This document shows, piece after piece, positions 4,062 through 60,446 of a DNA stretch of 64,000 bases (positions are counted from its first letter, which is position 1; every line of letters starts with the position of its first letter). The position numbers and the translations under genes were made by a program. Location: IMG/VR virus record IMGVR_UViG_3300012582_000005, positions 1 through 64,000 of that record; one strand, written 5' to 3'. A model generated the notes under the pieces. It was not told where the DNA came from. It worked only from the letters and a program-made list of their open reading frames with translations, and made no database searches. Source of the DNA: a virus.

Positions 4062-4301
4062 TTATTTTGTTGAATTTTCTTCATTGAATAATTTTTCTAT
4101 TCTACTTTTTCTATTATTAACTAATTCTAAATGTGTGCTATGAATATTATTATCACCATCATAAAATTTAACATTCAATCTAACTATTTGGCCGCTTATA
4201 TTATGTGATTGTGTATCTATTACAGTAAAAATACCTTCTATATACCACGATGAATTTTTACGTATATCTAATATTTTTACAGTATCGCCTATTTTAAACA
4301 T
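4062..4301 (-). CDS. Hypothetical small protein
   Basis: 79-aa ORF in the minus-strand gene string. Confidence 0.4.
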   Translation of the reverse strand: MFKIGDTVKILDIRKNSSWYIEGIFTVIDTQSHNISGQIVRLNVKFYDGDNNIHSTHLELVNNRKSRIEKLFNEENSTK

Positions 4302-4303
4302 AA

Positions 4304-5146
4304 CTAATTAGAAATATTTTTATATGATACACCCCAAACCAATTCTACTTTATGTTTAGAAACTCTTCTAACATATTTATCATAAATTCCTTCTACAAAT
4401 GTTTTAGTAGAATAGAATTTCTCAGCATCTTCTATAGAATCAAACCACAATTTAACAGATACACTCTCGATTGTAATTTTTCTTATTAATTGTATATGTG
4501 GTGATTGTATTCTTCTCAATTCTTTTACGAAAACTTCTAAATATCTATCATCAACATTTTCATTATCAGGAAAATTAAAATATACAGATTCCAAACCCTC
4601 TATTTCTAAAGTTTCATCTCCATATACATTTTCGGGTATCAATTCATCAAATGTTGCAAAAATAGAATCTATTCTTGCTCTAAATTCATGAAAATTAAGT
4701 TCTTCTTTCACTAAATCTCTTTTTTCCAATTCTATTTCTTTTGGATAATGAGGATTATTGTTATTTAACTTTCTCCACTCACTGATTTTATTCTTAATAT
4801 CATCATCCTTTTTACTTAGTACTTTGCTATCTTCTTCAAATAAAGTTTTTGGATAAATTGATATTATATGATGTTTATATTCTTTTAGAATATCTTTTGA
4901 TAAATGATTAAGAAGAAATTTGACTCTAGCTGTTTGATTATTCCCACCTGTTCTATATTCAATAGTTTTTAATTCGAGTAGTATTAATCCTTCTGGATTA
5001 TTTAATAAAGATTCTGTATCTTTATTCAAAGAAACCATCTTAGATTCCATAAAAGATTTGAAATCTCCTTTCGTCTTAGTAATTGTATTAGTTGATTTCT
5101 TGAAATTACTCAACATAAAATCAAAATCATCTTCAATTTCAGCCAT
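4304..5146 (-). CDS. Hypothetical protein
   Basis: 280-aa ORF with no recognisable motif. Confidence 0.5.
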   Translation of the reverse strand: MAEIEDDFDFMLSNFKKSTNTITKTKGDFKSFMESKMVSLNKDTESLLNNPEGLILLELKTIEYRTGGNNQTARVKFLLNHLSKDILKEYKHHIISIYPKTLFEEDSKVLSKKDDDIKNKISEWRKLNNNNPHYPKEIELEKRDLVKEELNFHEFRARIDSIFATFDELIPENVYGDETLEIEGLESVYFNFPDNENVDDRYLEVFVKELRRIQSPHIQLIRKITIESVSVKLWFDSIEDAEKFYSTKTFVEGIYDKYVRRVSKHKVELVWGVSYKNISN

Positions 5147-5325
5147 ATTTATAAAATTTATACCATTATACCTTTTAAAAAGTTAAAAGTTTGAATTTTA
5201 ACAATGAATTAAAAATTAAAAAAGTTAAAAATACAAGATCATGATATATAATATATTAATAATATACTATATTAAAAGAATAATTATATATTGAATGATA
5301 TAGTAGTTATAAAAATCATTAAATG

Positions 5326-5562
5326 TTAACTTATATGATTATCTGGTATAGCAGTTTGTTTTAATCCTTTTCTTTTAGCTATATTTTCTTGATGTTTAGC
5401 TTCTATTTCAAGTTCTATGTCTAATTGTGATCCTTCATTTCCTAATGAAGTACCTTCTATGTCTATTAAGTTTTCAGTATCTACTTTGGGATTTTCTATT
5501 TCTGTTTCAGGAAGAACAGCTTCATTTTTCTTAAACTCGTTAAATTTCTTAATGTTTCTCAT
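5326..5562 (-). CDS. Hypothetical protein with CTS-like leader (MRNIKKFNEFKKNE|A)
   Basis: The internal ATG at 5562 abuts the upstream stop at 5564 and exposes the recurrent leader. Confidence 0.45.
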   Translation of the reverse strand: MRNIKKFNEFKKNEAVLPETEIENPKVDTENLIDIEGTSLGNEGSQLDIELEIEAKHQENIAKRKGLKQTAIPDNHIS

Positions 5563-5563
5563 A

Positions 5564-5890
5564 TTAAAAATAATCTTCAAATTTTACATCACCATTTTGA
5601 ACTACTATTTTTGAAATAGTTTCGCCCTCATATTTATCACCTTTTTTATATTTTTCTTTTAGTTTTTCTAATTCTTCTTTATTGTCCGCTTTAAAATGTT
5701 TTCCTATTTTATAAGTATTAGTCATTTTATTAGCTTTCATAGCTTTTTCCAAAGCTTCTTTTGTAATTATAGTTAATATATATCCATCACCTTCTTTTTT
5801 ATGTTTAGAATTTTCTTTTTCTCTATCTTCATCGGATAACTTCATAAGTTTCTTTTCTTGAAGAAATTCATTGAATTTTTTAATACTCAT
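5564..5890 (-). CDS. Hypothetical K/E-rich protein with CTS-like leader (MSIKKFNEFLQE|K)
   Basis: 108-aa ORF with the leader motif at its N-terminus. Confidence 0.5.
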   Translation of the reverse strand: MSIKKFNEFLQEKKLMKLSDEDREKENSKHKKEGDGYILTIITKEALEKAMKANKMTNTYKIGKHFKADNKEELEKLKEKYKKGDKYEGETISKIVVQNGDVKFEDYF

Positions 5891-5935: not shown

Positions 5936-5951
5936 TTTTTAATATATAAAG
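5936..5951 (+). promoter_or_regulatory. Late-promoter-like T-run + ATATATA element
   Basis: TTTTTAATATATAAAG ends 2 nt before ATG 5953. It belongs to the recurrent motif family. Confidence 0.3.
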
Positions 5952-5952
5952 T

Positions 5953-6822
5953 ATGAAAAATATTAAATCATTTGAAGCTTTTGATAATGATATAGAGAAT
6001 AAAAGACTTTATTTAAATGTAGATAATGGAATTACTATTAAATCTGATGTGAATAAAACATCTAAACAAGGTTTTATTGAAAAAATGAAAGATAAATTTT
6101 ATAGTGTATCTAAAGTTAAAGAAATAGTATCTAAAGTTAAATGGGAAAATTTAATAGTTAAAGATGTGAATATGATATCTACAACAGATGGTGAAAATTC
6201 TATAATAAGAGTTTTTTTACCTGATGAAATTCAAAAACAAATTAGATTATCTAAAATAGATTTTGATTATGTTGAATTTAAAATTGATAATATAGGATTT
6301 GATAATAGAACACATACTATTGGTATAGATGATAAGTTAAAAGGTTTAGGATTAGGATATAAGTGTTATAAAGCTTTAGCGAAACATTTGGGATGGATAA
6401 CATCACATTCAAATGCTTCAAGTGATGCTAAAAATGTATGGTTAAAATTAATAAAAGATAAAGATTTTTACTCTATTTTATCTAAACTTTCTGTAATGAT
6501 TATTAATAAAAATTTATCTAAAGAAAATATTAGAACTGCTATTTTGAAATTTTTATCAATTAATTTTGTTAAAATTGAAGGTGAGTCTGATAAAGAAATA
6601 ATCAAAAAATTAGCAGGAAAGAAATTTCCTATTAAAATGGACGATGAATTAAAACAAATGTTCAAAGATGATGTTTTAATTAGAAGATTAGATATTGACT
6701 ATTTTGATAGAATAAGTAAATTTATAAAAGATGAGGATGCGGTAAATATAAAAGATGATGATATGCAAATTCATTATAGAAACAATACTAAAAGAGATAT
6801 GAATAAAAAAAGGGAGAATTAA
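5953..6822 (+). CDS. Hypothetical protein with CTS-like leader (MKNIKSFEAFDNDIE|N)
   Basis: 289-aa ORF. KLKGLGLGYKCYKAL weakly resembles GNAT motif A, but this is not enough for a call. Confidence 0.5.
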   Translation: MKNIKSFEAFDNDIENKRLYLNVDNGITIKSDVNKTSKQGFIEKMKDKFYSVSKVKEIVSKVKWENLIVKDVNMISTTDGENSIIRVFLPDEIQKQIRLSKIDFDYVEFKIDNIGFDNRTHTIGIDDKLKGLGLGYKCYKALAKHLGWITSHSNASSDAKNVWLKLIKDKDFYSILSKLSVMIINKNLSKENIRTAILKFLSINFVKIEGESDKEIIKKLAGKKFPIKMDDELKQMFKDDVLIRRLDIDYFDRISKFIKDEDAVNIKDDDMQIHYRNNTKRDMNKKREN

Positions 6823-6993: not shown

Positions 6994-7773
6994 TTATTTT
7001 CTTTTTTCCGCAGGTTTTTCTTCTTTAGTTATAACATTATCAATTAGTCCATAATCTTTTGCTTGTGGACTACGCATCCAGTAATCTCTTTCGCAATCTC
7101 TATAAACTTCTTCATAAGTTTTTCCTGAATGATTTGCAAGAATTTCATAAAGTTCTTTTTTAAGAATATCAATTTGTTGTGCAGTGATTTGAATATCAGT
7201 TGCTTGTCCTTGTGCGCCACCAAGAGGTTGATGAATCATAATTCTTGAATGTGGAAGAGCAAATCGTTTTCCTGCTGCACCACCCGCTAAGAGAACTGCA
7301 CCCATTGATGCTGCTAAACCTGTACAGATAGTAGATACGTCTGGTGAAATATAATTCATAGTATCATAAATACCCAAACCTGCATAAACTGAACCACCTG
7401 GACTATTTACATACATTTGTATATCTTTATCTGAATTTGCTGATTGTAAAAAGAGCATTTGTGCTACTAAAATGTTTGCTACGTGATCATCTACACCAGT
7501 ACCTAAAAAGATAATTCTATCAGCAATTAAACGAGAGAATACATCAATTTCTCTAAAATTAACATTACGTTCTTCTATAATTGAACGTGTCATATTACTA
7601 ATGTCGGGTACTATATGTCCGATATAAGGAACATTCATAGTAATATTTGGAATATTACTTAAACTTTGTATTGCGTTGGTTTTAATGTACTTATCAACGT
7701 GAATACCACCAATACCCATATGCTTTACGGCATAATTTCTAAAATCTTTTCCAATTTTTAAATGTTCTCTCAT
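6994..7773 (-). CDS. clpP: ATP-dependent Clp protease proteolytic subunit
   Basis: [22 protein letters not shown]...[18 protein letters not shown]...[11 protein letters not shown]...[18 protein letters not shown] is near-canonical ClpP with the Ser/His/Asp triad intact. Confidence 0.9.
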
Positions 7774-7812: not shown

Positions 7813-7843
7813 CAAATATAATTAAATTATTTATAATACCAAA
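7813..7843 (-). promoter_or_regulatory. Bacteroidota-type promoter for clpP
   Basis: The minus strand reads TTTG (7843-7840), N19, TATATTTG (7820-7813), about 40 nt upstream of the ATG. Confidence 0.45.
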
Positions 7844-8338: not shown

Positions 8339-8355
8339 TTTTTTAATATATAATA
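8339..8355 (+). promoter_or_regulatory. Late-promoter-like element
   Basis: TTTTTTAATATATAATA lies 18 nt before the sheath start. Its core is near-identical to 16111-16126. Confidence 0.35.
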
Positions 8356-19834: not shown

Positions 19835-19847
19835 AATAATATATAAC
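19835..19847 (+). promoter_or_regulatory. Late-promoter-like element
   Basis: AATAATATATAAC lies 18 nt before the TTG start of the giant ORF. Confidence 0.3.
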
Positions 19848-38117: not shown

Positions 38118-38711
38118 ATGATTGAGCAATTATTCTACGAGAAAACTGGAATAAATTTTGATGATTTTTATAAAAAATATAGACCAAAATTGATTTGGTA
38201 TTTAATGCGAATGTCTAATGATTTAGCCGAAGCAGAAGAAGTAGCTGATGATGGTTTTGAAAAAGCATTAAACGAAATCAGGAAATATGATTTTGAAAAA
38301 TCACAGTTTTCAACTTGGTTATTCACTATTACTAAGAGACTTATGATTCAAAGAATGAAGGTGAAAAAGAAATTTGAGTCTATAGAAGAAGATCATGACG
38401 GTGCTAATATAGGAGATTTTCTTATGTCGGATAATAGAAATATGAATATGGTAGATACCATGATACTTAAAAAAGCTGAAATTATAAAAAGAAAAATACC
38501 AGATTTACCAAAAAAGTATGCGACAGTATTAACAATGAGAGAAATAGATGGATTTACATATAAAGAAATCTCAGATGTTTTAAAATTGAATGAAAATACT
38601 ATTAAATCGAGAATTCGTCAAGGTAGATTATTACTACAGAAATATATAAAACCTGAGTTAGAAAGATTGGATAAAGGCTCATTTTGGGAAATTGATCATA
38701 CAGGTGTATAA
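38118..38711 (+). CDS. RNA polymerase sigma factor, sigma-70 family (ECF-like, regions 2 and 4)
   Basis: Region 2 reads AEEVADDGFEKAL...FSTWLFTITKRLMIQ. Region 4 reads LPKKYATVLTMREIDGFTYKEISDVLKLNENTIKSRIRQGRLLL. Confidence 0.8.
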   Translation: MIEQLFYEKTGINFDDFYKKYRPKLIWYLMRMSNDLAEAEEVADDGFEKALNEIRKYDFEKSQFSTWLFTITKRLMIQRMKVKKKFESIEEDHDGANIGDFLMSDNRNMNMVDTMILKKAEIIKRKIPDLPKKYATVLTMREIDGFTYKEISDVLKLNENTIKSRIRQGRLLLQKYIKPELERLDKGSFWEIDHTGV

Positions 38712-40927: not shown

Positions 40928-40941
40928 TTTTTTATATATAG
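40928..40941 (+). promoter_or_regulatory. Late-promoter-like element
   Basis: TTTTTTATATATAG is followed by TTCATG. ATATATAGTTCATG recurs exactly at 47892-47905. Confidence 0.3.
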
Positions 40942-40944
40942 TTC

Positions 40945-41589
40945 ATGTCTATTAAATCATTCGAATTATTCCAAGAGAAATATAATGCTACGGGTGCTAA
41001 ACTTGATTATTATTATATTTTAGATGATTTGTCTACTACTAGATTAAGAGATATTTATAAAGTTGTTAAATTAAACAATTTTAGAGCAATTGCTACATTT
41101 TCTGAAAATATAGAGCATTTTGAAGAAATACCATGTAAGAAAATAGCATTAGTAAATTATCCTAAATTATTCTCGTCATCAAGAGTTTTTAGAGAAATTG
41201 AAAGTGTTAAAGCTGATGAAATTGAATTTCCGTGGGATAAGAAATATATTTTAGAAAAAGAACAGTGGAGAAGCGTGGTACTTAAAGCCTTATCACAAGG
41301 TAAAATAATTAGACCAATGTTAGAATTTGGTATAGATTCAGCAGATTATATTAAAGATACAATAGAATTTTTTAAAGAAGTTGGAATTAAAGATGTAGTA
41401 ACTTCTTCTGGATTAATAGATAAAACTACCACATTGGAAAAATTCACCGAATTTAAAATGTTAATTCCTAATATTTTTAAAGTTAAAGTTATAGCCGAAA
41501 TTAAAGATATAGATAAAGCAAAAATATTTTTTAAAGAGGGTGCTAATTTAGCAGGAACTACATTCACAAAACTTAATATTTCTTTGTAA
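40945..41589 (+). CDS. DeoC/aldolase-like TIM-barrel protein (degenerate) with CTS-like leader
   Basis: A hand alignment to E. coli DeoC gives KKIALVNYP~IRIATVTNFP, KADEIEFPW~GADEVDVVFP, GIKDVVTSSG~GADFIKTSTG and ANLAGTT~RFGAS. The Schiff-base Lys position is Val. Confidence 0.35.
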   Translation: MSIKSFELFQEKYNATGAKLDYYYILDDLSTTRLRDIYKVVKLNNFRAIATFSENIEHFEEIPCKKIALVNYPKLFSSSRVFREIESVKADEIEFPWDKKYILEKEQWRSVVLKALSQGKIIRPMLEFGIDSADYIKDTIEFFKEVGIKDVVTSSGLIDKTTTLEKFTEFKMLIPNIFKVKVIAEIKDIDKAKIFFKEGANLAGTTFTKLNISL

Positions 41590-43965: not shown

Positions 43966-44352
43966 ATGAAACATATAAAATCGTTTAACCAATATACTAT
44001 CAATGAATCTACTGAAGGATTTGGTGATGTATTAAAATTAATCAATAATATCGATTTGTTAAAGAAGATATTTGAATTTGCTAATGAAATTGATATTGAC
44101 AAATTGATTAAAAAATTTGGCACTATGGATGAAATGATACAAGTATTTAAAGATGCTAACGAAAGTGTTGATAGTATGAAACGTGTAATATTAGCATTAT
44201 TTTCTAAAAATCCCAAACCAATTTATAAAGATAAATTAGATATTATGTGTAATTATCTTAAAGTTAAGTATAAAGCAACAGAGGATAATATAAAATTCCT
44301 AAAACAAGCTATAATTGATTTTGCTAAAAATTTTAATGTTCCTGTAAAATAG
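43966..44352 (+). CDS. Hypothetical protein with CTS-like leader (MKHIKSFNQYTINE|S)
   Basis: ATG 43966 is preferred over TTG 43927. Confidence 0.45.
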   Translation: MKHIKSFNQYTINESTEGFGDVLKLINNIDLLKKIFEFANEIDIDKLIKKFGTMDEMIQVFKDANESVDSMKRVILALFSKNPKPIYKDKLDIMCNYLKVKYKATEDNIKFLKQAIIDFAKNFNVPVK

Positions 44353-47887: not shown

Positions 47888-47899
47888 AATAATATATAG
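47888..47899 (+). promoter_or_regulatory. Late-promoter-like element
   Basis: AATAATATATAG lies 3 nt before ATG 47903. Confidence 0.3.
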
Positions 47900-47902
47900 T
47901 TC

Positions 47903-48313
47903 ATGAAGTACTTAAAATTATACGAAAATTTCTCAGAAGAATGGGATGATGAAGATGAAGAGGAGGAAGATGATACGCTCGATTCAGTATTTGAAATTAT
48001 TAATGGGTATGGTGGTTATGATACATATATTAAAGTAAACTATAATGAATTAAGAAGATATTTTGAAGTTAACGGTATATTAATTGAAGGTATAATGGTT
48101 GAAAATAATAAAGATTGGGGTGATGAACAATTTAGTGAATATGAATTATATTCTCATATTTATCCCCGATATGATAAAGTTGATGAAGAAGTAATTTTAA
48201 AAATAGATAATGATTTTAAGAGTTTATCTTTTATAGAAACTATTGTAAACAATATAAAATACAATACATTTATTTTAAATTTTAAACGTGGAATTGGTGT
48301 AGAATTATGTTAA
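47903..48313 (+). CDS. Acidic hypothetical protein with CTS-like leader (MKYLKLYENFSEE)
   Basis: The run EEWDDEDEEEEDDTLD follows the leader. Confidence 0.45.
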   Translation: MKYLKLYENFSEEWDDEDEEEEDDTLDSVFEIINGYGGYDTYIKVNYNELRRYFEVNGILIEGIMVENNKDWGDEQFSEYELYSHIYPRYDKVDEEVILKIDNDFKSLSFIETIVNNIKYNTFILNFKRGIGVELC

Positions 48314-48329
48314 AAAATAAATATTAAAA

Positions 48330-48740
48330 ATGAAATCATTTAAAAAGTTTGTTGCTGATGCAAGTAGAAGAAAAGAGAAAGAGGTAGAAAAGCCTTTCGA
48401 AATGCCAAAAAAAGGAAATACTTTGGAACCTCTTACTAATGATTTAGAGCCCATTCAAGATGAAATTGAAAAACAACAAAAACCTATCAAGTTAAAAGAT
48501 AATGATTGGGAAATTGTGAGCATAATTGATTTTACAAAAGAAGAGCCGCAAATAAAAGAAGCTGTTATTGTTAATGCTGATTTGGGAAATACAGAAGTTT
48601 CGCGCGGTGATATTATATACATAACAGCAATGCTTAGAAAAAAGGATGCTAAATATTATTCACAAAATGTTATTGGTGTTCTAAAGACTAGAGTAGTGGA
48701 CATATATAATTCGTTATCAATATTGAACAATCTAAAATAA
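48330..48740 (+). CDS. Hypothetical protein (weak leader MKSFKKFVAD)
   Basis: 136-aa ORF. Confidence 0.45.
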   Translation: MKSFKKFVADASRRKEKEVEKPFEMPKKGNTLEPLTNDLEPIQDEIEKQQKPIKLKDNDWEIVSIIDFTKEEPQIKEAVIVNADLGNTEVSRGDIIYITAMLRKKDAKYYSQNVIGVLKTRVVDIYNSLSILNNLK

Positions 48741-48966: not shown

Positions 48967-49632
48967 TTATTTTATAAATAGTTTTGAATCTATTATTTTT
49001 ACTGATGGTGATGCTGTAATAGTATACTTTTTTAATTTTTCAATAAATGTATCAAATTCGGTAGATTGTGCATGTATTATGCCGTTTAGAGTTCTGATGT
49101 GTCCCTTTTCAAGCTTTGATTTATATTTTTCAAAACTTTCATCAAGTGTAATCAAATATGATTTAGAACCTTTATGTACGTCTTTTAACATCAATGATTC
49201 AAAATCAGATTGTTTATATCGTTCTCTCAAAGTTGTTTTTGCACTTATACATAAAGGACCAACTTCTTTGCTGTACATCATAATATCAAAATTTATGTCT
49301 GCAACAAAAGATACTTTAGCACCCATGTAAAATGGAATTATGTTTTCTCTATATAAAAGTGTTGCTAAAATGTATTCAAAAATTTTACCATTTTGGCTAT
49401 TATTTTTATTTTTAATTTTAGTTGTATAGCTATCCCAATATTTTTTAATGTATTCGGATGGAGTATTGTATTCTAAATTTCTGAAATCTCCTTCTAAACT
49501 TTCAAATATCACTGCTACTTTTGTAGATTTAGATTTTCCAGTTACTATACCTATATCTTGTAATAAGCACATCGTGTAATATAATATTTTAGTATTATAC
49601 ACAGAAAAAGAAATCAGTTTGATTAAAAACAT
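48967..49632 (-). CDS. PD-(D/E)xK nuclease-like protein
   Basis: GKIFEYILATLL...VADINFDIMMY...LCISAKTTLRERYKQ forms a D...(S)xK core. The alternative start ATG 49572 is equally plausible. Confidence 0.4.
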   Translation of the reverse strand: MFLIKLISFSVYNTKILYYTMCLLQDIGIVTGKSKSTKVAVIFESLEGDFRNLEYNTPSEYIKKYWDSYTTKIKNKNNSQNGKIFEYILATLLYRENIIPFYMGAKVSFVADINFDIMMYSKEVGPLCISAKTTLRERYKQSDFESLMLKDVHKGSKSYLITLDESFEKYKSKLEKGHIRTLNGIIHAQSTEFDTFIEKLKKYTITASPSVKIIDSKLFIK

Positions 49633-49661
49633 AAAAAAGACTTGTAAATTTACAAGTCTTT
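49631..49661 (-). terminator. Intrinsic terminator (minus strand)
   Basis: A perfect 26-nt palindrome AAAGACTTGTAAATTTACAAGTCTTT is followed by TTTTTT on the minus strand. Confidence 0.6.
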
Positions 49662-49673
49662 AAATATTTACAT

Positions 49674-51401
49674 TCAGCCATCGTCTTCATTACCGTCTTC
49701 GTCATCATAATCATAGTCATATTCATCACCAGGTAATTGCCTATCTTGTATTCTATATGCGAATAAATTATCTGTTAAAGGTATTTGAATATCGTCAACA
49801 GCAAGTTTATTACGTTTATTTGCAATTTGTTCAGGTGTAGTTCTTTCAGCAAAGAATATAGGATCAATAAATGGTTTCATTGCACGATAGAGATTGTGTT
49901 TAGTAATTCTATTTTTCTTATCAGGTACAGGAACTCTTTCCACAGTACCATCTTTCTTCTTAACTTTTTTGAATGGCTGTTCATCTGCCCATTTAGCAAT
50001 TTCATCAAAATTAACAGACCCGTTATACCATTTCAAAAGTTTTTCTGTAGACTTTCTATTTCTTGTTTTTGTGTCAGGTTTTAATTCTGATGTTTCTATA
50101 TTAGCATCATAAAATGCTTGAACATTTACATAATTTTTATAAATATCTTGTCTATAAACCATTTCATCGGTTAAATAACTATAAGTAGCTTTGTTAGCTT
50201 CTTCCTCAGTCATTACTTTGAATGTTCCTTTATCAGTGACATATATGTTTTTTTCAATTTCGAAAATATCTTCTGGTGTATGGTTTAGATAAGTAGCGAG
50301 TGCCATTAATCTACTATCTTTAGTAGCATTTGGATTAGTTTTAATACTTCTCGCAGCTAAAGTATCCATATACGGTGCGCCCAAACCAATATTAGTAAAG
50401 AAATAATTTCCACCTTTATATTCATTCTTCATTCCCGTATATTTCGTAACAATTTTATGGAAGAATTGTTTTAAAACACCAGGATATACCATATCAAAGA
50501 ATATTTGACCTTTAACATTTCTAATTAAACATCTTGAAAATATAGTAAAAGGTACAATGTTTTTCTTTTTATCTGTGAACGGTGTATTGAATTTTAGATA
50601 AGCAATTTTAACGTTTGAATCAAATAAATTTGCTGGTAAATGCTTATTATGTGATCCACTATAAAGATTTTGACACGAATCATAAAATTTTGATATGGAC
50701 ATATTTAACATATCTTCTGACTTAGAAGATATGTAAAGCTGTAAGTCGTATTTAGAAAATAAATCAATGTCAAAATTTCTATCAACAGCCATTGAAAGAA
50801 TATTAGTAAAGGCTGGATTAATAAATGGGTTTTTCATATCATTCTCTCCAGGGAAAGCTAACATATAACTTTCATAAAAACCATTGAAGTTGGATATGTT
50901 ATTTGATAGAATAATTTCACCAGGTTCTTTATTTCTATATGTTGGTAGATTGTCTTCACCTAATAATGGTTTTCCATTATCTCCTTTTATCATTATTCTA
51001 TTACCTCTTGTTTCTCCAATGCTAATTAATTTATAAATATTAGAAGTCATTAATTTTAAATCAAGCAAAGATGGTTTTTCGATATCAATAACACCATCTA
51101 TGGTTTTAGCTTCTTTTATAGTGTTGATAAATTTAGTTGATGGTTTCCATCCTTCGAGAAGCAATTCAATTTTTTTAACGTTCACCATAAACATCGATTG
51201 TATTGCTTCATCTTTCTCTTCTTTGGTCAATATCCATTCACCCTCGGTTAAGTTTTCGGCTTTATCAGGAACTTCCATATCAAGATATTTTTTACCAATC
51301 CTCTTGGTTAAAATCTTTTTATGGTGATCAGGAATTTGATCTTTTAGTGCTTCTTTTACTTGAAATTCTTCAAGAGATTTAATATTTTTACTATTCTTCA
51401 T
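49674..51401 (-). CDS. Paralogue family member 1 (575 aa), with CTS-like leader
   Basis: It shares the core DLQLYISSKSEDMLNMSISKFYDSCQNLYSG...FSRCLIRNVKG with the next two genes. The C-terminus is acidic. Confidence 0.7.
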   Translation of the reverse strand: MKNSKNIKSLEEFQVKEALKDQIPDHHKKILTKRIGKKYLDMEVPDKAENLTEGEWILTKEEKDEAIQSMFMVNVKKIELLLEGWKPSTKFINTIKEAKTIDGVIDIEKPSLLDLKLMTSNIYKLISIGETRGNRIMIKGDNGKPLLGEDNLPTYRNKEPGEIILSNNISNFNGFYESYMLAFPGENDMKNPFINPAFTNILSMAVDRNFDIDLFSKYDLQLYISSKSEDMLNMSISKFYDSCQNLYSGSHNKHLPANLFDSNVKIAYLKFNTPFTDKKKNIVPFTIFSRCLIRNVKGQIFFDMVYPGVLKQFFHKIVTKYTGMKNEYKGGNYFFTNIGLGAPYMDTLAARSIKTNPNATKDSRLMALATYLNHTPEDIFEIEKNIYVTDKGTFKVMTEEEANKATYSYLTDEMVYRQDIYKNYVNVQAFYDANIETSELKPDTKTRNRKSTEKLLKWYNGSVNFDEIAKWADEQPFKKVKKKDGTVERVPVPDKKNRITKHNLYRAMKPFIDPIFFAERTTPEQIANKRNKLAVDDIQIPLTDNLFAYRIQDRQLPGDEYDYDYDDEDGNEDDG

Positions 51402-51450
51402 TGAAAATAAGTTTTTATGATATATAAATAATATATTGAATAAATATAAA

Positions 51451-53085
51451 TTAATTTCTCTTCTTTATTTCTTGTTTGTATGCGAAATAGTCACCCATGT
51501 TAATTTCATTTTCATCAACTGAAAGTTTATTTCTTTTACTTGAAATACTTTCATCGGTTAATCTTTCTTCCCAGAATTTTGAATCCAAATACGGTTTCAT
51601 AAAACGATAAAGATTGTGTTTGGTGATATTATGTTTATTATTTCCACCAAATTTTTTAGGATCAAATCCTAAATCTGAACCACGCCTTTCATCATCATCT
51701 TCATTTAAATCTCTTTTTTTCTTTTTTTCTTTTTTAGGTGTTGGTGGTTCTTCTGCCCATTTAGTAATTTCATCAAAGTCACATGATCCACTATAGTTAA
51801 CCAAACATTTACTTTTATTTTCTTCGAAGAATTTTTCGATATCAACATATTTTTTGTAAATATCTTGCTTATAAATCATTTCTTCTGTAATATAATGTTT
51901 AGTTGCATTTAAAGCTTCTTCGATAGATAACACAAGAAAGTCTCCTTGGTCAGTTCCATAAACATTCTTATCAGCTTCGAGTATATAATCAGCTTCAGTT
52001 TTTAAGAATTTAGCTAATGCTTGAAGTTTTATGTCTTTGTAAGCATCAGGATTGAATTTAATAGGAACACCGATTACACTATCAAAATAAGGACGACCTA
52101 ATCCAACTTCGGTATAATAATAAGTCTTTGATTCTTTATCAGCAAAAGAATTCTTCATTCCTGTATATTTTTCAATGATTGAGTGTACAAATAATCTCAA
52201 ATCATTTGAAAATTTAGGGTATACCATATCAAAATAAATTCTACCTTTAATGTTTCTAACTATGCATCTTGTAAAAGATGTAAAGGGCATAACATTTCCA
52301 TTTCTATCGGTATATGGTGTATTAAATTTTAAATAAGCAATTTTACAGTTCTTATCGAACAAATTTGGCGCAAGACAATTATTTTGAGCACCACTATAAA
52401 GATTTTGACATGAATCATAAAATTTGGAAATTGACATATTCAACATATCTTCTGGCTTAGATGATATGTAAAGCTGTAAGTCGAATTTGGTAAATAGCTC
52501 AAAGTCGAAATTACCCTGTTTTACATAAGAAAGAACTTCTGTAAACTCTCTACTCATGAAAGGATTTTCTATTTTAGCGTCACATGCAGAATTATAAGAC
52601 TCTAAGAAAGCATTGAAGTTAGATTTATTGTTTGAAAATACAATTTCACCTTTCTTTTTATCTACTTTTTTAGGCATTTTCAATAATCCTTCCGTAATAG
52701 GATGACCGTTATCATTTCTAAGAATCATTTTATCACCTTTTGTTTCACCAACATTAATAAGCTTAAAACTGTTAGAATTAAGCATTTTAATATCAATAAT
52801 TGATGGTTTTAAAAGATTAATTGCGTCTTTAGTAGTTCTTGAAAGCTCAAAAATTTCTAAAAAATGCTCAGTTGGTTTAAATTTAGCCAATACTTTATCA
52901 ATACCCTTAACGTCAACACCAAAAAGAAGTTGGATAACACCATCCTTTTCCTCTTTAGTTAATGTCCATTCACCCTCAATAATGTTTTCAGCCTTTGTGG
53001 GTAATTCAAGATTTAGGTATTTTTTACCTATTTTTTTATCCATCAATTCTAATTGATGTTTTGGTAAGAGGTCTTTTAACGACAT
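51451..53085 (-). CDS. Paralogue family member 2 (544 aa), no leader
   Basis: It has the same conserved core. Its N-terminus MSLKDLLPKHQ aligns with the post-leader ALKDQIPDHH of member 1. Confidence 0.7.
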   Translation of the reverse strand: MSLKDLLPKHQLELMDKKIGKKYLNLELPTKAENIIEGEWTLTKEEKDGVIQLLFGVDVKGIDKVLAKFKPTEHFLEIFELSRTTKDAINLLKPSIIDIKMLNSNSFKLINVGETKGDKMILRNDNGHPITEGLLKMPKKVDKKKGEIVFSNNKSNFNAFLESYNSACDAKIENPFMSREFTEVLSYVKQGNFDFELFTKFDLQLYISSKPEDMLNMSISKFYDSCQNLYSGAQNNCLAPNLFDKNCKIAYLKFNTPYTDRNGNVMPFTSFTRCIVRNIKGRIYFDMVYPKFSNDLRLFVHSIIEKYTGMKNSFADKESKTYYYTEVGLGRPYFDSVIGVPIKFNPDAYKDIKLQALAKFLKTEADYILEADKNVYGTDQGDFLVLSIEEALNATKHYITEEMIYKQDIYKKYVDIEKFFEENKSKCLVNYSGSCDFDEITKWAEEPPTPKKEKKKKRDLNEDDDERRGSDLGFDPKKFGGNNKHNITKHNLYRFMKPYLDSKFWEERLTDESISSKRNKLSVDENEINMGDYFAYKQEIKKRN

Positions 53086-53114
53086 ATGTTATTGCTTTTT
53101 CAAATACATTTATA

Positions 53115-53144
53115 CAAATATACCATAAAAGTTTTAAAAACCAA
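53115..53144 (-). promoter_or_regulatory. Bacteroidota-type promoter for paralogue 2
   Basis: The minus strand reads TTG (53144-53142), N19, TATATTTG (53122-53115), 30 nt before the ATG. Confidence 0.45.
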
Positions 53145-53162
53145 CATTTTTTTAAAAAAAGT

Positions 53163-54776
53163 TTAAGATTTCTGAATAATTAAGTAATCACCTACTCGAA
53201 TTTCTTTGTTTTTCCCACCCAAAACCCTGACTATTTGATTTTTCCAATCTAAAAGTATTTTATCATAAAATTTTCTATCAATAAAATCATAAAAATAACC
53301 TATAAGATTACTTCTACCCAATATTGACCTGAGATATTTATAAACGTCTTCTGCTTCAACATCTTTTCTATCCATATTATACTTTTTAGCTGTTTCATTA
53401 ACAGTTGTAGAAAATTCACCTCTAAATCTATCCATATCAATATAATGTGCCCAATCATCTACAGGATAAATTTCAGTGAAATTATTCTTCAACGAAGAAA
53501 ACATTTTATCAATAATTACAGTTTCATCTTTTGTAATATCAAAAATATAGAATGTTTTAGACTCTTCATCAACATAGGTATATTCACATGACTTATCTTT
53601 AACAATATATTCTATATCTAAATTAAGCTCTTTTGATAATAAAATTGCTTTAGTATCATTGAATGCTGATTTTATTTCTTCTATACCTAATGTGTCCATA
53701 TAAGGTGTAGCTAATCCTTTTGTATTTTTGTAAAAATATCTATCACCTTTATAAGTATTTTTCATAGAAGTATATTTTTCTATCATTCCATGATGAAACT
53801 CATTCATATCATACATTTTAGGATAAGCTGATTCAAAATATAATTTTCCTTTAATATTTCTTATAAGACATCTTGAAAATGGTGTGAATGGTATTATATT
53901 ATTCCCTATATCTATAAATGGTGTATTAAATCTTAAAAAACAAATTTTACAATTTTTATCAAACACATTTGAAGGTAATTGATGTCTATATCCACCATTA
54001 TACATATTTTGACAAGAATCGTAAAATGCTGATAAAGACATATTTAACATATCTTCTGCTTTTGATGAAATGTATAATTCTAAATCAAATTTACCTAAAA
54101 TATCAATATCGAAATTATTTCTAGTAATATCATTAATCCTTGAATAGATATTTTTGAAAGCTTCTAAAATATATGGATTTGAAATATCACCACCATAACA
54201 ATTGTGATAACCCATAAATAAGCTATTAATGTTAGATTTATTATCTGTAAATACTGGTTCACCTGGTAATTTATCTTCATATGATAACTCACCATCTTTT
54301 CTTAGAGGTATACCACTTTTATCACGTATTACTTTTCTATCACCTTTGGTTTCACTTATACTCAGCATCCTAAAATTATTACCATATAACATTTTTATAT
54401 CTTTAATGGTAGGTTTAATTATATTAATTTCATTATCGTGTATATAGGATTGCTTAACTATATCTAAAAATCTTTCAGATGGTTTAAATTCTTTTAAAGA
54501 GTTTTCTACAGATGATATGTTTATGTTAAACATTAGTTGAATTGCCTTATCTTTATCTTCCTCTGAAAGTTTCCATAAGCCATCGGTGATATTATCTGTT
54601 TTCTTTGGAACATCAGTATCTAATATATCATATGCATCTATATTATAAACTGAATAGTCATCATCGTCTGGATCATACTGTAAAATGTTATTCTTTAATA
54701 TGTCTTGTTGATGTTTTGGAATCTCATCCTTTAATGCTTCCTTTATAAATTGTGTGAAATTGAATATACGTTTCAT
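53163..54776 (-). CDS. Paralogue family member 3 (537 aa), with CTS-like leader
   Basis: The leader is MKRIFNFTQFIKE|ALKDEIP. The core reads DLELYISSKAEDMLNMSLSAFYDSCQNMYNG...FSRCLIRNIKG. Confidence 0.7.
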   Translation of the reverse strand: MKRIFNFTQFIKEALKDEIPKHQQDILKNNILQYDPDDDDYSVYNIDAYDILDTDVPKKTDNITDGLWKLSEEDKDKAIQLMFNINISSVENSLKEFKPSERFLDIVKQSYIHDNEINIIKPTIKDIKMLYGNNFRMLSISETKGDRKVIRDKSGIPLRKDGELSYEDKLPGEPVFTDNKSNINSLFMGYHNCYGGDISNPYILEAFKNIYSRINDITRNNFDIDILGKFDLELYISSKAEDMLNMSLSAFYDSCQNMYNGGYRHQLPSNVFDKNCKICFLRFNTPFIDIGNNIIPFTPFSRCLIRNIKGKLYFESAYPKMYDMNEFHHGMIEKYTSMKNTYKGDRYFYKNTKGLATPYMDTLGIEEIKSAFNDTKAILLSKELNLDIEYIVKDKSCEYTYVDEESKTFYIFDITKDETVIIDKMFSSLKNNFTEIYPVDDWAHYIDMDRFRGEFSTTVNETAKKYNMDRKDVEAEDVYKYLRSILGRSNLIGYFYDFIDRKFYDKILLDWKNQIVRVLGGKNKEIRVGDYLIIQKS

Positions 54777-54792
54777 AATAAATTGTAATATT

Positions 54793-54810
54793 GACTATAT
54801 ATTATTTTTT
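54793..54810 (-). promoter_or_regulatory. Late-promoter-like element
   Basis: The minus strand reads AAAAAATAATATATAGTC, 16 nt before ATG 54776. Confidence 0.3.
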
Positions 54811-55516
54811 ATTTTATAATATCCACAATATTTGATTCTAAAAATAGTAATAAGAAAAAAGCATCATTTATATCATCTAATGGTTTTATAATAGAAGACA
54901 TTTTATAAATTTCTTTAAAATTTTCTCTAATAAATTTTGTTAAATCATTATTAATATTCGAATCATTTAAAGCTTTAAAGATTTGATGTTTTTTCATAGA
55001 GCCCCCACTTATACCATCTGATGTTTTTGTGATTATTTTAATAATATTACCACTTTTATTTTTTTTAATTTCACCACCATATACTAAATAACAAGCTTGC
55101 ATTTTTAAAGTTGATGGTGATATAACATTCATTTTTGCGTTTAATATATTTTTCATTTTACTTCTAAATAAAGTCGTATATGTTACTATGTCAATAATTG
55201 AAGATGTTTTACCACCGCTGCTATAGGAAAACCCTTCTATATTATAAATTATATTATCATCACCTGTTATTTTTTTAATATCAAAAATTATTTGATCAGT
55301 TATTCTATCATAATCAATTAATTTATTGTTTTCGTTTGTAGAATAATTATCACTAATTTTAAACTCTGTACTCGTAATATTAACAAAATTCATTAACTTA
55401 GTCCATTTCCCATATTTGAAATTTTTAACATATGAAAGATAGTGATATACACCATTAGTTTTGATAACTAATGCAGCAGATGTTAACGATAAATCAACTC
55501 CAATATAACTATACAT
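54809..55516 (-). CDS. RuvC-like Holliday junction resolvase
   Basis: YIGVDLSLTSAALVI supplies the first Asp, NIEGFSYS the Glu, and the C-terminal DDINDAFFLLLF the final acidic residues. Confidence 0.55.
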   Translation of the reverse strand: MYSYIGVDLSLTSAALVIKTNGVYHYLSYVKNFKYGKWTKLMNFVNITSTEFKISDNYSTNENNKLIDYDRITDQIIFDIKKITGDDNIIYNIEGFSYSSGGKTSSIIDIVTYTTLFRSKMKNILNAKMNVISPSTLKMQACYLVYGGEIKKNKSGNIIKIITKTSDGISGGSMKKHQIFKALNDSNINNDLTKFIRENFKEIYKMSSIIKPLDDINDAFFLLLFLESNIVDIIK

Positions 55517-56250: not shown

Positions 56251-56514
56251 ATGAAAAAAGAGATTCTATTAAAATTTCAAAAAATTATATTAGGAGTAAT
56301 AATATTGGTTATAGTATTAATATTGTCAATATTTGCTATACCAATATTATATCTGTCTAAAAAATTTAAAAAATGTCAATACTGTAAAAAGAGAGGTAAA
56401 ATATCATACGAAGAGAAATATTATAATACTTTTATACCTGTTTGTCAAAATTGCTTAAATTTTAAAAATAAAAATGTTAGAAGGAAAGTTATTATAGATG
56501 ATATTGTTAACTAG
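56251..56514 (+). CDS. Small membrane protein with a CxxC...CxxC ribbon
   Basis: The TM segment is IILGVIILVIVLILSIFAIPILYL, followed by CQYC...CQNC. Confidence 0.4.
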   Translation: MKKEILLKFQKIILGVIILVIVLILSIFAIPILYLSKKFKKCQYCKKRGKISYEEKYYNTFIPVCQNCLNFKNKNVRRKVIIDDIVN

Positions 56515-56756
56515 TCTAATTCCTCATTTGAATCTAATCTTTTAAAGCCTATACCATTACACTCTGAACAACCATTTCCACCACAAGTACAAATTTCACC
56601 TTTTTTAAAAATTTCTTCATCTTCTTCTATTACACCATTCATAAAACAATCTTGGTCATTATCAAAATATGATATTCCCATCGGTGGATAATTTGGAAAA
56701 GAAGGCTTCAAGAATTGATTGAATGACTTCAAGTGTTTTCTTTTTTTATTTTTCAT
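56511..56756 (-). CDS. Small protein with DnaJ-type CxxCxGxG zinc motif and a leader-like N-terminus
   Basis: ATG 56756 is preferred because GTTTAATATATACAAC lies directly upstream. The motifs are HLKSFNQFLK and CTCGGNGCSECNGIG. Confidence 0.4.
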   Translation of the reverse strand: MKNKKRKHLKSFNQFLKPSFPNYPPMGISYFDNDQDCFMNGVIEEDEEIFKKGEICTCGGNGCSECNGIGFKRLDSNEELD

Positions 56757-56772
56757 GTTGTATATATTAAAC
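56757..56772 (-). promoter_or_regulatory. Late-promoter-like element
   Basis: The minus strand reads GTTTAATATATACAAC and abuts ATG 56756. Confidence 0.3.
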
Positions 56773-56858
56773 ATATTCTCAATATATTTTATCGACACTT
56801 AAATTTTTTTCTCATTATTTATATAACATTTATATTAAAAAAAACGTTATTATGAGCA

Positions 56859-57806
56859 ATGAGAAAAAAGACAATATCAACATTTTATGATGAAAGAATG
56901 GTTTTAATGGACGAAAATGTGCCAAATATTTCCAAATCACCATTAAAACCAAAAAAAATTATAGAATACATCCATAAAAACGGATTATTGGAATATTTCG
57001 ACATCAAGGAGTTTGAACCTTTCGAAAAAGAAGTTTTTTATACAGCACACTTCGAAAAATATGTTGACAATTTTTTTAATGGTATAGAACCACAAGCATC
57101 ATCAAATGGTTTGAAGTGGAATGCTCAATTTGCAGATTCGGTAAGATATACTAATGCGAGTTTATATAATGCTATTTTAAATTCTATAAAAAATCCAGAT
57201 GAAGTATCATTTAGTAATACTGCTGGTTTCCATCATGCTACACCTGATGAAGGAATGGGATTTTGTACATTTTCAGGACAAGTAATAGCATCACTAAAAA
57301 TTTATAGAGAACTTGGATTATCTGGTGCATATCTCGATTTAGATGGGCATTTTGGAAATAGTTTAGAAGACAGTAGGTATTTTGCACCTGATTTAAATGA
57401 AGCTGTTCCTACAGAATGTAATATTAATCCTCAATATCATAGTAAATATTACATTATTGATTTACAGGAAAGATTAGAAAAATTAAGAGAACGAATAATT
57501 CAAGGAAAAACACATTATTTAGTATTCTGTCATGGTGCTGACTCCCATTTTTGGGACGACTATGGTACACAATTAAATACTGAACAATGGATAGAATGTT
57601 CTAAAATAGTATACAACTTTGTTAAAAGTATTGAAGAAGAATTAAAAAAGCCATTTCCTTTAGCTCTTTCACTATTCGGTGGTTATAGAAAAGATGATTA
57701 TAATAGTGTACTATCTCTACATTTAGCAGATTTAGTAGAATGTTTGAATATATTATGTGATAATGACATTAAATATAAACCAAGCGTAATAGAACCGAGA
57801 TATTAA
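56859..57806 (+). CDS. Histone deacetylase/acetoin-utilisation family (arginase-fold) deacetylase
   Basis: The catalytic HH is in GFHHATPDEGMGFCTF. YLDLDGHFGN provides the D-x-H zinc ligands, GADSH the third ligand, and FGGY the catalytic Tyr. Confidence 0.75.
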   Translation: MRKKTISTFYDERMVLMDENVPNISKSPLKPKKIIEYIHKNGLLEYFDIKEFEPFEKEVFYTAHFEKYVDNFFNGIEPQASSNGLKWNAQFADSVRYTNASLYNAILNSIKNPDEVSFSNTAGFHHATPDEGMGFCTFSGQVIASLKIYRELGLSGAYLDLDGHFGNSLEDSRYFAPDLNEAVPTECNINPQYHSKYYIIDLQERLEKLRERIIQGKTHYLVFCHGADSHFWDDYGTQLNTEQWIECSKIVYNFVKSIEEELKKPFPLALSLFGGYRKDDYNSVLSLHLADLVECLNILCDNDIKYKPSVIEPRY

Positions 57807-59573: not shown

Positions 59574-59587
59574 AAACTCCCTTTTTT
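59565..59587. terminator. Bidirectional intrinsic terminator
   Basis: A-run, GGGAGT, TAAAA loop, ACTCCC, then TTTTTT, between convergent genes. Confidence 0.7.
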
Positions 59588-60446
59588 ATTTAACTTTTAA
59601 GCTAAGTTTAACAAATTGTTCAGCTAAGAATTTAGGATCTTGTGGATTGTCTGTACCTTTCACGTATGGTGTTTTCCCCATTACTGTAGTTACTGTCGCA
59701 ACTTGTGATATAAATCTCGATAAATCTGGATTGGATGTTTTATATAAAGTAATGACATAATTTTTCAAATTGTTAGCTCTTGCTTGTGCTAAAGCTTGGT
59801 TTCCACCTTGATATGTAGTGGCAACTTGTGATGCACCACCAACAAAAGTAAATGTATACTTATCGGTAGCACCTGGCGCTCTTAAAGCACCTTTATTTTC
59901 AGTAAAATATGTTTCAAATGGTTTTAACATATCATTTAATTCAGTCTTCTTAGTTTCGTCTATAACATCAACATTGGGTGCAAAGAAATTTCCTAAATCT
60001 AATTCAATTGGTTTTATTGTTACTGGATTAGCACCACCTGGTACTATAATACCCTGAGCCATCCAAGCAGTACCATTTTTATTAAGATTTAAAACCCATG
60101 TGTTTTGTTCTGTACCATAATTTCCAATTACAGCTTTACCATCAGCACCGATATTCTTTTTTAAGATACCCATTTTAAATGGTCCATGAATAGAAGAACC
60201 TGTTGCAATATTAAAAGACTCATTAGTAGAGTAAATGAATCTATCTTCGCTATCAAGGAAAGTAAAATTCATTGGGGCTGTGTTTAAAGGCTTTCCATCA
60301 TAGAGGAATGTGCATGCACCTGTAATACCTTTTTTGTATTTTTCACCAACAGCATACCCAATAAGTTGAATTGATATTTGTAATTTAGCTGCATCAACCG
60401 CTTCATTTATTTTACCATAATCTTGATACTTCTTTAAATACTTCAT
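59586..60446 (-). CDS. Hypothetical protein with CTS-like leader; C-terminus weakly OmpA/MotB-like
   Basis: The leader is MKYLKKYQDYGKINE|A. FVGGASQVATTYQGGNQALAQARANNLKNYVI resembles GhtD..G....N..LS..RA..V..yl. Confidence 0.4.
   Translation of the reverse strand: MKYLKKYQDYGKINEAVDAAKLQISIQLIGYAVGEKYKKGITGACTFLYDGKPLNTAPMNFTFLDSEDRFIYSTNESFNIATGSSIHGPFKMGILKKNIGADGKAVIGNYGTEQNTWVLNLNKNGTAWMAQGIIVPGGANPVTIKPIELDLGNFFAPNVDVIDETKKTELNDMLKPFETYFTENKGALRAPGATDKYTFTFVGGASQVATTYQGGNQALAQARANNLKNYVITLYKTSNPDLSRFISQVATVTTVMGKTPYVKGTDNPQDPKFLAEQFVKLSLKVK

Follow-up and report, generated by a model that had tools for sequence, protein, structure and literature searches.

The closest described precedents for the locus analysed here come from phage T4 and from phages of the phiKZ type. 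In T4, ModA and ModB are early, non-packaged proteins encoded by adjacent genes, and the late-type AT-only element reads TATAAATA. Phages of the phiKZ type have virion and non-virion RNA polymerases, one set of which is packaged and injected while the other is made after infection, and the cleavage motif of phiKZ and SPN3US is S/A/G-x-E. Injected polymerases are also mentioned in PMC7824862. The T4 protein Alt is packaged and processed (PMC9026906). Furthermore, the T4 protease gp21 cuts after L/I-x-E, the first bond mapped being Glu-Ala, and in the capsid-targeting sequence of IPIII (MKTYQEFIAE) residues 4 and 7 act in targeting and residues 8 and 10 in processing (PMC9026906, PMC8442874). 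This work describes a tandem array of three paralogous genes on a viral DNA stretch of 64,000 nucleotides (nt), hereafter the window, which covers positions 1 to 64,000 of IMG/VR record IMGVR_UViG_3300012582_000005. The family comprises leader-bearing and leaderless proteins. On balance, we consider it probable from their sequences that they represent late, capsid-packaged, injected versions and early, newly made versions of one effector.

The interval 49674-54776 consists of exactly three minus-strand open reading frames (ORFs) in tandem. A preliminary description, made from the sequence alone, had reported three consecutive minus-strand genes with a common core, and the ORFs and all core motifs quoted there were recovered. 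The genes and the hairpin that follows them are:

49674-51401, minus strand: copy 1, 575 amino acids (aa), defined by ORF and alignment, bearing an atypical leader and, at the C-terminus, an acidic tail (DEYDYDYDDEDGNEDDG).
51451-53085, minus strand: copy 2, 544 aa, defined by ORF, leaderless with the start M-S-LKD; predicted early, non-packaged form.
53163-54776, minus strand: copy 3, 537 aa, defined by ORF and alignment, with a canonical leader; predicted late, capsid-packaged form.
49636-49661, minus strand: terminator-like hairpin with an 11-bp (base pair) stem followed by a T run, directly after copy 1.

The three copies align over their full length with pairwise protein identities of 39-51%, namely 51% between copies 1 and 2 and 41% between copies 1 and 3. 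The window has a G+C content of 23-32% and codes for T4-type gp32, DNA ligase, tail sheath and a 4,864-aa ORF, as well as for an ECF-like sigma factor and proteins with a sorting domain of the Bacteroidota type IX secretion system (T9SS). The genes for gp32, gp13 and the T4-type sheath served as lineage markers. Copy 2 is also recorded on a contig of 636,443 bp, and the genome holds five family paralogues in total, three in the array and a pair (P0058 and P0008) elsewhere. A search of related phages for copy number and leader presence, as had been proposed, returned the array in three metagenomic contigs (L001, L003 and L004) and a single leader-bearing member in L007, L008, LR745206 and LR756502.

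The leaders of copies 3 and 1 are located as follows:

54738-54776, minus strand: copy-3 leader MKRIFNFTQFIKE, with a predicted cut after E13 (E↓A).
51351-51401, minus strand: copy-1 leader MKNSKNIKSLEEFQVKE (V-K-E↓A), with the aromatic residue one position off relative to copy 3.

Copy 3 continues beyond its leader with ALKDEIP and copy 1 with ALKDQIP. When aligned at the cut, the copy-3 leader carries F at both P7 and P4, I at P3 and E at P1, with A at P1', and agrees with T4 IPIII at all four mapped positions as well as at P1'. The orthologues of copy 3 (P0009, P0010 and P0011) all bear a leader. Leader statistics were derived from 105 full-length family representatives, with the conserved L-K/R-D-E-I-P as anchor. 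An N-terminal extension precedes this anchor in 98/105 representatives and E-[A/S] is found at the junction in 76/105; among those 76, P3 is L, I, F or V in 67 and P1' is Ala in 72, in accordance with the L/I-x-E specificity of gp21. The ancestral leader length is 10-18 aa. In the AlphaFold model of copy 3, residues 1-10 have a predicted local distance difference test (pLDDT) score below 50 and the rest lies above 85-90, which places the leader outside the fold. We read the leader as a putative T4-type capsid-targeting sequence and propeptide. Packaging is less certain for copy 1 than for copy 3, because its leader and its promoter motif are both degenerate.

Similar N-termini are not confined to the family. 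The pattern K-x-[FY]-x-x-[FYW] occurs 30 times in the 19,330 residues of the window proteome, and 11 of these occurrences lie within ~10 residues of the N-terminal Met, a ~15-fold enrichment at N-termini. An M-K-x-[IL]-K-x-[FY]-x-x-[FY] start is also present on at least eight unrelated window ORFs without a significant Pfam match:

5564-5890, minus strand: leader-like ORF.
5953-6822, plus strand: leader-like ORF.
40945-41589, plus strand: leader-like ORF.
43966-44352, plus strand: leader-like ORF.
47903-48313, plus strand: leader-like ORF.
48330-48740, plus strand: leader-like ORF.
56511-56756, minus strand: leader-like ORF.
59586-60446, minus strand: leader-like ORF.

Together the leader ORFs look like a genome-wide set of putative capsid-targeted cargo proteins. 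No earlier description of capsid-targeting-like leaders in Bacteroidota phages was found in the literature.

The four other huge phages with a single family member encode, directly after it, an overlapping (translationally coupled) partner gene of 543-591 aa, for which the window and its close relatives contain no homologue:

L007, 11713-13488: partner gene.
L008, 11671-13308: partner gene.
L011 (LR745206), 4123-5754: partner gene.
L012 (LR756502), 4183-5817: partner gene.

The L007 and L008 partners, whose sequences were read, combine a leader of their own (MK.LK.IKLFEAF...) with a DnaJ-like CxxCxGxG zinc-finger motif. A small window ORF (56511-56798) likewise combines a leader with the motif CSECNGIG.

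Copy 2 starts with MSLKDLLPKHQ, and its S2 is aligned with the Ala that follows the putative cleavage site, so the description of copy 2 as aligning from the residue after that site holds. The in-frame stop reported ahead of copy 2 is present, at a distance of two codons (reading KKQ-stop-HM) rather than five, and no leader can therefore be encoded for this copy. Leaderless proteins occur in several parts of the family. Within the copy-2 clade, the window copy, P0003 and the L003 middle gene lack the leader; the remaining one of the three orthologues of copy 2 (P0002) has a 16-aa non-canonical extension without an E↓A site. In the copy-1 clade, L004 copy 1 and P0005 are leaderless. The N-terminus of this clade is labile, being leader-like in the window copy and P0006 and replaced by a 71-aa extension in P0007. 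A second, leaderless tandem pair lies near the terminase of the same genome (locus L006, Logan ERR3663021_7):

L006, 4292-5956: P0058, 554 aa, leaderless.
L006, 6001-7629: P0008, 542 aa, leaderless.

This pair is situated between Dam/RNase HII and NUDIX/terminase genes, and TATATTTG stands ahead of its first gene.

A neighbour-joining tree indicates that the leader was present in the ancestor and was lost independently at least three times. In the window lineage, leaderless members without exception start with M-[A/S/P/Q]-L-[K/R]-[D/E] or M-L-K-E. Aminopeptidase removes the initiator Met when residue 2 is Ala, Ser or Pro. Such removal would yield A/S/P-L-K-D, the register of the predicted mature A-L-K-D, and the start register of the leaderless members is the strongest indirect argument for the putative E↓A cleavage. 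The idea that the leader is a separable module is well supported by the comparison: it is ancestral, was repeatedly lost, is disordered in the copy-3 model, and the leaderless starts are in register with the cut. The proposed split of the family into packaged and intracellular forms is likewise supported by comparative evidence, with the correction that copy 2 is not the one intracellular version, as the genome encodes two more leaderless paralogues.

Three upstream elements accompany the array:

54796-54802, minus strand: ATATATA, 19 nt ahead of copy 3; late-type element specific to the phage and putative promoter.
51419-51425, minus strand: ATATATC, one mismatch to ATATATA, 17 nt upstream of copy 1.
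53115-53144, minus strand: TTG-N19-TATATTTG, predicted promoter of the Bacteroidota sigma-A type (-33/-7 boxes), 30 nt before the copy-2 ATG.

ATATATA-type elements had been reported ahead of copies 1 and 3; the match is exact for copy 3 only, copy 1 having the one-mismatch form. In the window, 19 of the 29 occurrences of ATATATA fall in the 9% of the DNA that is intergenic, compared to 6.5 ± 2.8 in simulations. At 4-34 nt from the gene start, the element precedes the tail sheath gene, the 4,864-aa ORF and others, and in relatives also gp13 (neck), the terminase operon and lysozyme. It precedes 8/10 leader-type window genes (the eight unrelated ORFs plus copies 1 and 3) vs 11/38 other genes. 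The spacing between ATATATA and the start codon falls into two classes, 4-8 nt and 16-25 nt. Examples of ATATATA 4 nt before the ATG are 5942-5948, 40934-40940 and 47892-47898, and those at ~20 nt include 8346-8352 and 19839-19845. If ATATATA is a -10-like element, the short-distance class would yield leaderless mRNAs starting at AUG. An ECF-like factor of the sigma-70 family with regions 2 and 4 is encoded at 38118-38711 on the plus strand, with a syntenic homologue in L003, and is a candidate for recognising the phage-specific promoter class.

The -7 box of Bacteroidota sigma-A is TAnnTTTG (PMC9723704). The host-type promoter that had been noted ahead of copy 2 was found again, and its (G)TTG-N19-TATATTTG agrees with the Bacteroidota sigma-A consensus (-33 TTTG, -7 TAnnTTTG, ~19 nt apart), making it a predicted promoter. 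Such signals also stand before genes other than the family members: TATATTTG or TATCTTTG precedes DNA ligase, UvdE, a histone-deacetylase (HDAC)-like gene and ClpP in the window and relatives, and the composite pattern precedes ligase, UvdE and the HDAC-like gene in relatives. In the window, TTG-N17-21-TAnnTTTG occurs at 14 sites, which is no enrichment over the 12 ± 3 expected. What is informative is the placement: eight of these 14 lie just upstream of genes, among them ClpP, DNA ligase, tRNA-Met, two signal-peptide proteins, a small ORF and copy 2. A scan for Escherichia coli-type sigma-70 promoters returned 51 sites vs 50.5 expected. The ClpP homologue (6994-7773, minus strand) is full-length (Pfam E = 1e-77) and lies behind a perfect TTTG-N19-TATATTTG at 7813-7842 on the minus strand; it resembles an early ClpP of the cellular type more than a prohead protease.

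When the family members of all genomes are taken together, ATATATA is found ahead of 8/8 canonical-leader genes checked and (T)TTG-N18-20-TATATTTG ahead of 6/6 leaderless genes with an upstream region of their own, although both counts represent fewer independent events, as the four copy-2 and the four copy-3 orthologues share ancestry. The eight are copy 3 in four genomes and the single leader-bearing member in L007, L008, LR745206 and LR756502; the six are copy 2 in the window, L001, L003 and L004, the leaderless copy 1 in L004, and P0058 in L006. At the level of sequence patterns, the link between leader presence and promoter class holds across lineages.

From these observations we infer packaging, cleavage and expression timing, and an enzyme or effector nature of the core. 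The leader-bearing copies (copy 3, and less surely copy 1) would be made late, because they lie behind the ATATATA element that is common to structural genes. The leader would carry the protein into the prohead core, where a gp21-type (S77) prohead protease would cut after the Glu of [L/I/F/V]-x-E↓A and the leader would be lost. The mature protein (ALKDEIP...) would stay in the head and enter the next host by injection together with the DNA. The leaderless copies (copy 2, P0058 and P0008) would be made early by the host RNA polymerase and remain in the cell. The phage may thereby deploy one activity twice, both pre-loaded and newly made.

Several observations weigh against this dual deployment. 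Neither the window nor the fetched flanks contained a gp21 homologue or other prohead protease; the flanks, examined for capsid genes as well, added only gp13 to the genes already seen. A Glu-specific prohead protease would nevertheless be expected in this phage from its lineage, as group 2 jumbo phages, including the Bacteroidetes megaphages, use an S77 gp21-type enzyme (PMC7824862). Terminator-like sites were looked for between the copies and none was detected; the only one follows copy 1, and late transcripts from the predicted copy-3 promoter are therefore likely to read through into copies 2 and 1. As to copy 1, in the window its leader is shifted by one residue against that of copy 3 and its upstream element has the mismatch, in L001 it has a 71-aa extension without an E↓A site, and in L003 it has a leader-like N-terminus, yet follows copy 2 after a spacer of only 6 nt (6-11 nt in L001 and L003). 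The shared ancestry behind the 8/8 and 6/6 counts and the unenriched composite pattern belong here as well. Finally, ATATATA may be a class-specific or regulatory element other than a promoter, and the E-A-L-K-D junction could be kept simply as the start of a folded domain.

A wider reading of these data is possible, but we put it forward with less confidence than the dual deployment itself. Bacteroidota megaphages would use the leader (~13 aa) as a general, portable label on dozens of cargoes. Genes would pass between capsid pre-loading with injection and fresh early synthesis by gaining or losing it, accompanied by a swap between a late phage promoter (ATATATA) and a host sigma-A promoter. 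On this reading, the 540-aa family would represent an injected host-takeover or anti-defence enzyme that is deployed in both modes and has a Cys/Arg/Tyr centre, exchangeable C-terminal targeting domains and no recognised fold.

The protein family itself has no annotated relatives. Neither the three copies nor distant members had a significant match in Pfam, PHROGs, NCBIfam or PADLOC, and the same libraries revealed no recognisable extra domain in the longer members (~660-1,080 aa). A sequence-profile search of the PDB gave 0 matches even at E ≤ 10, and all source annotations of members read 'hypothetical protein'. Among 1.84 billion representative proteins, a profile search identified 182 relatives, and all contexts looked at are large phage contigs of the Bacteroidota type or huge-phage genomes. 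In the phage collection, blastn gave no match and tblastn matched LR745206 and LR756502 only. Conservation is concentrated in the N-terminal half (~345 aa). Residues C226, R273 and Y333 (copy-2 numbering; C255, R302 and Y359 in copy 3) are invariant and S218, S220, S225, G232, N241, D244, N246, R277, D286, Y289 and D335 are near-invariant, the near-invariant polar residues clustering within one 130-aa stretch. The C-terminal domain is variable and differs by clade, with leucine-rich repeat (LRR)-like repeats in one large clade and an acidic tail in the copy-1 types.

AlphaFold produced confident models of copy 2 (pLDDT 85.8) and copy 3 (pLDDT 91.5; predicted template modelling score (pTM) 0.83), and neither had a Foldseek match in the PDB at E ≤ 0.001. 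Structure prediction on the shared core had been suggested as a check against well-known enzyme families and none was matched; the view that the core falls outside known families is in agreement with the library searches and with both models. Two candidate folds were rejected. An EndoG or beta-beta-alpha-Me nuclease was suggested only by the top Foldseek matches, with E = 0.17-0.24, a probability of 0.15 and template modelling (TM) scores ≤ 0.18; this nuclease class needs a His-Me finger in which a His (DRGH) is catalytic and an Asn binds the metal, and the family has no invariant His. An ADP-ribosyltransferase had no match in Pfam or NCBIfam and none among the Foldseek PDB matches of either model; rather than an R-S-E or H-Y-E triad, the family has conserved Cys, Arg and Tyr, with a Ser before the Arg and no invariant Glu. 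Scattered GNAT/p300 matches in Foldseek were, like those to EndoG, taken as noise. Against BFVD, Foldseek returned only uncharacterised phage proteins with low TM-scores, including two of the Dickeya jumbo phage JA29. The invariant Cys/Arg/Tyr, the dense block of polar motifs and the swappable C-terminal domains would suit an enzyme or effector equipped with targeting modules, a reading that we hold to be less likely than not.

These results also bear on the alternative that survives best, itself unlikely, in which the packaged copies are structural or inner-body (scaffold-like) parts of the head that are not injected, and the leaderless copies are assembly factors or have another role. It draws on the paralogous head-internal protein families of phiKZ and SPN3US, which are processed after Glu by a prohead protease, on the uncharacterised jumbo-phage proteins (the two of JA29 included) being the sole structural neighbours, and on the absence of a recognised catalytic fold. 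However, leaderless copies with host-type promoters, like those of ligase, UvdE and ClpP, would precede heads, and the invariant residues, the polar cluster and the exchangeable domains described above are more typical of an enzyme or effector.

Ranking just below it, and equally hard to favour, is the explanation that the N-terminal extension is dispensable and has no targeting role, the paralogues being all intracellular and differing in timing through ordinary subfunctionalisation. The packaging prediction is indirect, the extension is short and K/I/F/N-rich, as AT-rich genomes would give, and E-A-L-K-D adjoins a highly conserved domain start, where conservation could be structural. Yet M-K-x-I-K-x-F-x-x-F also heads approximately eight unrelated window proteins and the partner gene in four other phages, the extension corresponds to the T4 capsid-targeting sequence at the four functionally mapped positions, it is disordered in the model, and it tracks the structural-gene motif in each of the 8/8 cases.

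We regard it as very improbable that the leader serves a destination other than the capsid, such as the membrane, the secretion pathway or a phage compartment. The phage does encode secreted proteins with T9SS sorting domains. However, MKRIFNFTQFIKE is amphipathic and charged without the hydrophobic core of the Sec or lipoprotein type, it ends in a gp21-type site and not in a signal-peptidase site, and the genuine signal peptides of the window (38828 and 58371) differ from it and sit behind host-type promoters.

The weakest alternative, a recent tandem duplication still homogenised by gene conversion, has next to no likelihood and was rejected, given that the single exact 21-nt match between copies 1 and 2 in its favour contrasts with the codon-level identity, the synteny and the orthologue tree described below. 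The match consists of two sites:

50728-50748, plus strand: first site, an exact match to 52463-52483, encoding DLQLYIS in the core.
52463-52483, plus strand: second site, encoding DLQLYIS in the core.

The preliminary description was right that the two sites are identical, and none such is expected by chance; its interpretation as recent duplication or gene conversion did not hold. Nucleotide identity over the whole genes is only 56-63%, and since the match lies in the most conserved motif, it is no sign of either process. Copies 1 and 3 have a 22-nt run in common in the same conserved-motif region. Where residues are identical between copies, a fraction of 0.6 of them also use the same codon, a value that holds along the whole length and increases only slightly in the core. 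The triplication is old and not recent, because the order copy 3-copy 2-copy 1, beside a homologous 230-248-aa gene, is kept in the contigs L001, L003 and L004, and because every copy clusters with its own orthologues in the neighbour-joining tree.

In the window, the gene adjoining copy 3 (54809-55516, minus strand; 235 aa) has no family match, and homologues with 34-44% identity stand beside copy 3 in L001, L003 and L004. In the window it runs in the direction of the array, but in those three contigs it is divergent, indicating a local inversion. Directly downstream of the array terminator, the gene at 48967-49632 (minus strand) weakly matches the domain of the BsaWI type II restriction endonuclease (E = 8e-6, right on the Pfam cut-off). 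A histone-deacetylase-family gene occurs near the array in two genomes (window 56859-57806, plus strand; L003, 2919-3821), and that of L003 is preceded by the TATATTTG element.

Little is known about the start of infection or the capsid contents of the largest phages, which exceed 600 kb and are uncultured. If the leader is a true capsid-targeting sequence, the combination of leader and ATATATA would predict a packaged, injected megaphage proteome from metagenomes; in the window, leader-type genes make up ~10 of ~48, eight of them with ATATATA. The family offers matched versions of the same protein with and without the leader, in which the tag is modular, and the two upstream elements provide working definitions of an early (host-type) and a late promoter class for this phage group. 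A protein with a confident fold, no recognised relatives and ~180 sequence clusters is moreover a good target for structural and functional work.

Compared to known systems, the array resembles the inner-body families of phiKZ and SPN3US in having large paralogous proteins, there head-internal, with propeptides that are cut after Glu by a gp21-related protease, as is predicted here. The site is S/A/G-x-E in those phages and the putative site here L/I-x-E, no sequence relationship is detectable, and the weak Foldseek matches are not to phiKZ or SPN3US proteins; no report of leaderless, early-promoter paralogues in these phages was found in the literature. The phiKZ-type RNA polymerases likewise form paralogous sets, packaged and injected vs made after infection, but they belong to another family with another function, and an N-terminal leader switch has not been described for them.

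The capsid-targeted cargo of T4 shares with this family a leader with aromatic residues at P7 and P4, I/L at P3, E at P1 and Ala directly after it (MKTYQEFIAE↓A vs MKRIFNFTQFIKE↓A) and the presence of the leader on otherwise unrelated proteins; an upstream element composed of A and T only, which is of the late type in T4 and putatively so here, is a further parallel. The cargo here is a conserved 60-kDa protein whose fold is not recognised, where that of T4 is a small basic protein, and it also exists in leaderless, predicted early-promoter versions; moreover, the host phylum is Bacteroidota, the genome measures 636 kb, and cleavage and packaging are predicted. The closest functional analogue is T4 Alt with ModA and ModB, where one family provides a packaged, processed and injected form (Alt) and early, non-packaged paralogues. 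Unlike these, the present family lacks an ADP-ribosyltransferase fold or R-S-E motif, its forms predicted to be packaged and non-packaged are neighbours in a single tandem array, and they differ by a cleanly removable leader and a changed promoter class. Capsid-targeted cargo and packaged vs early paralogues are both already known from T4, and our finding is an extension of these principles and not a new paradigm.

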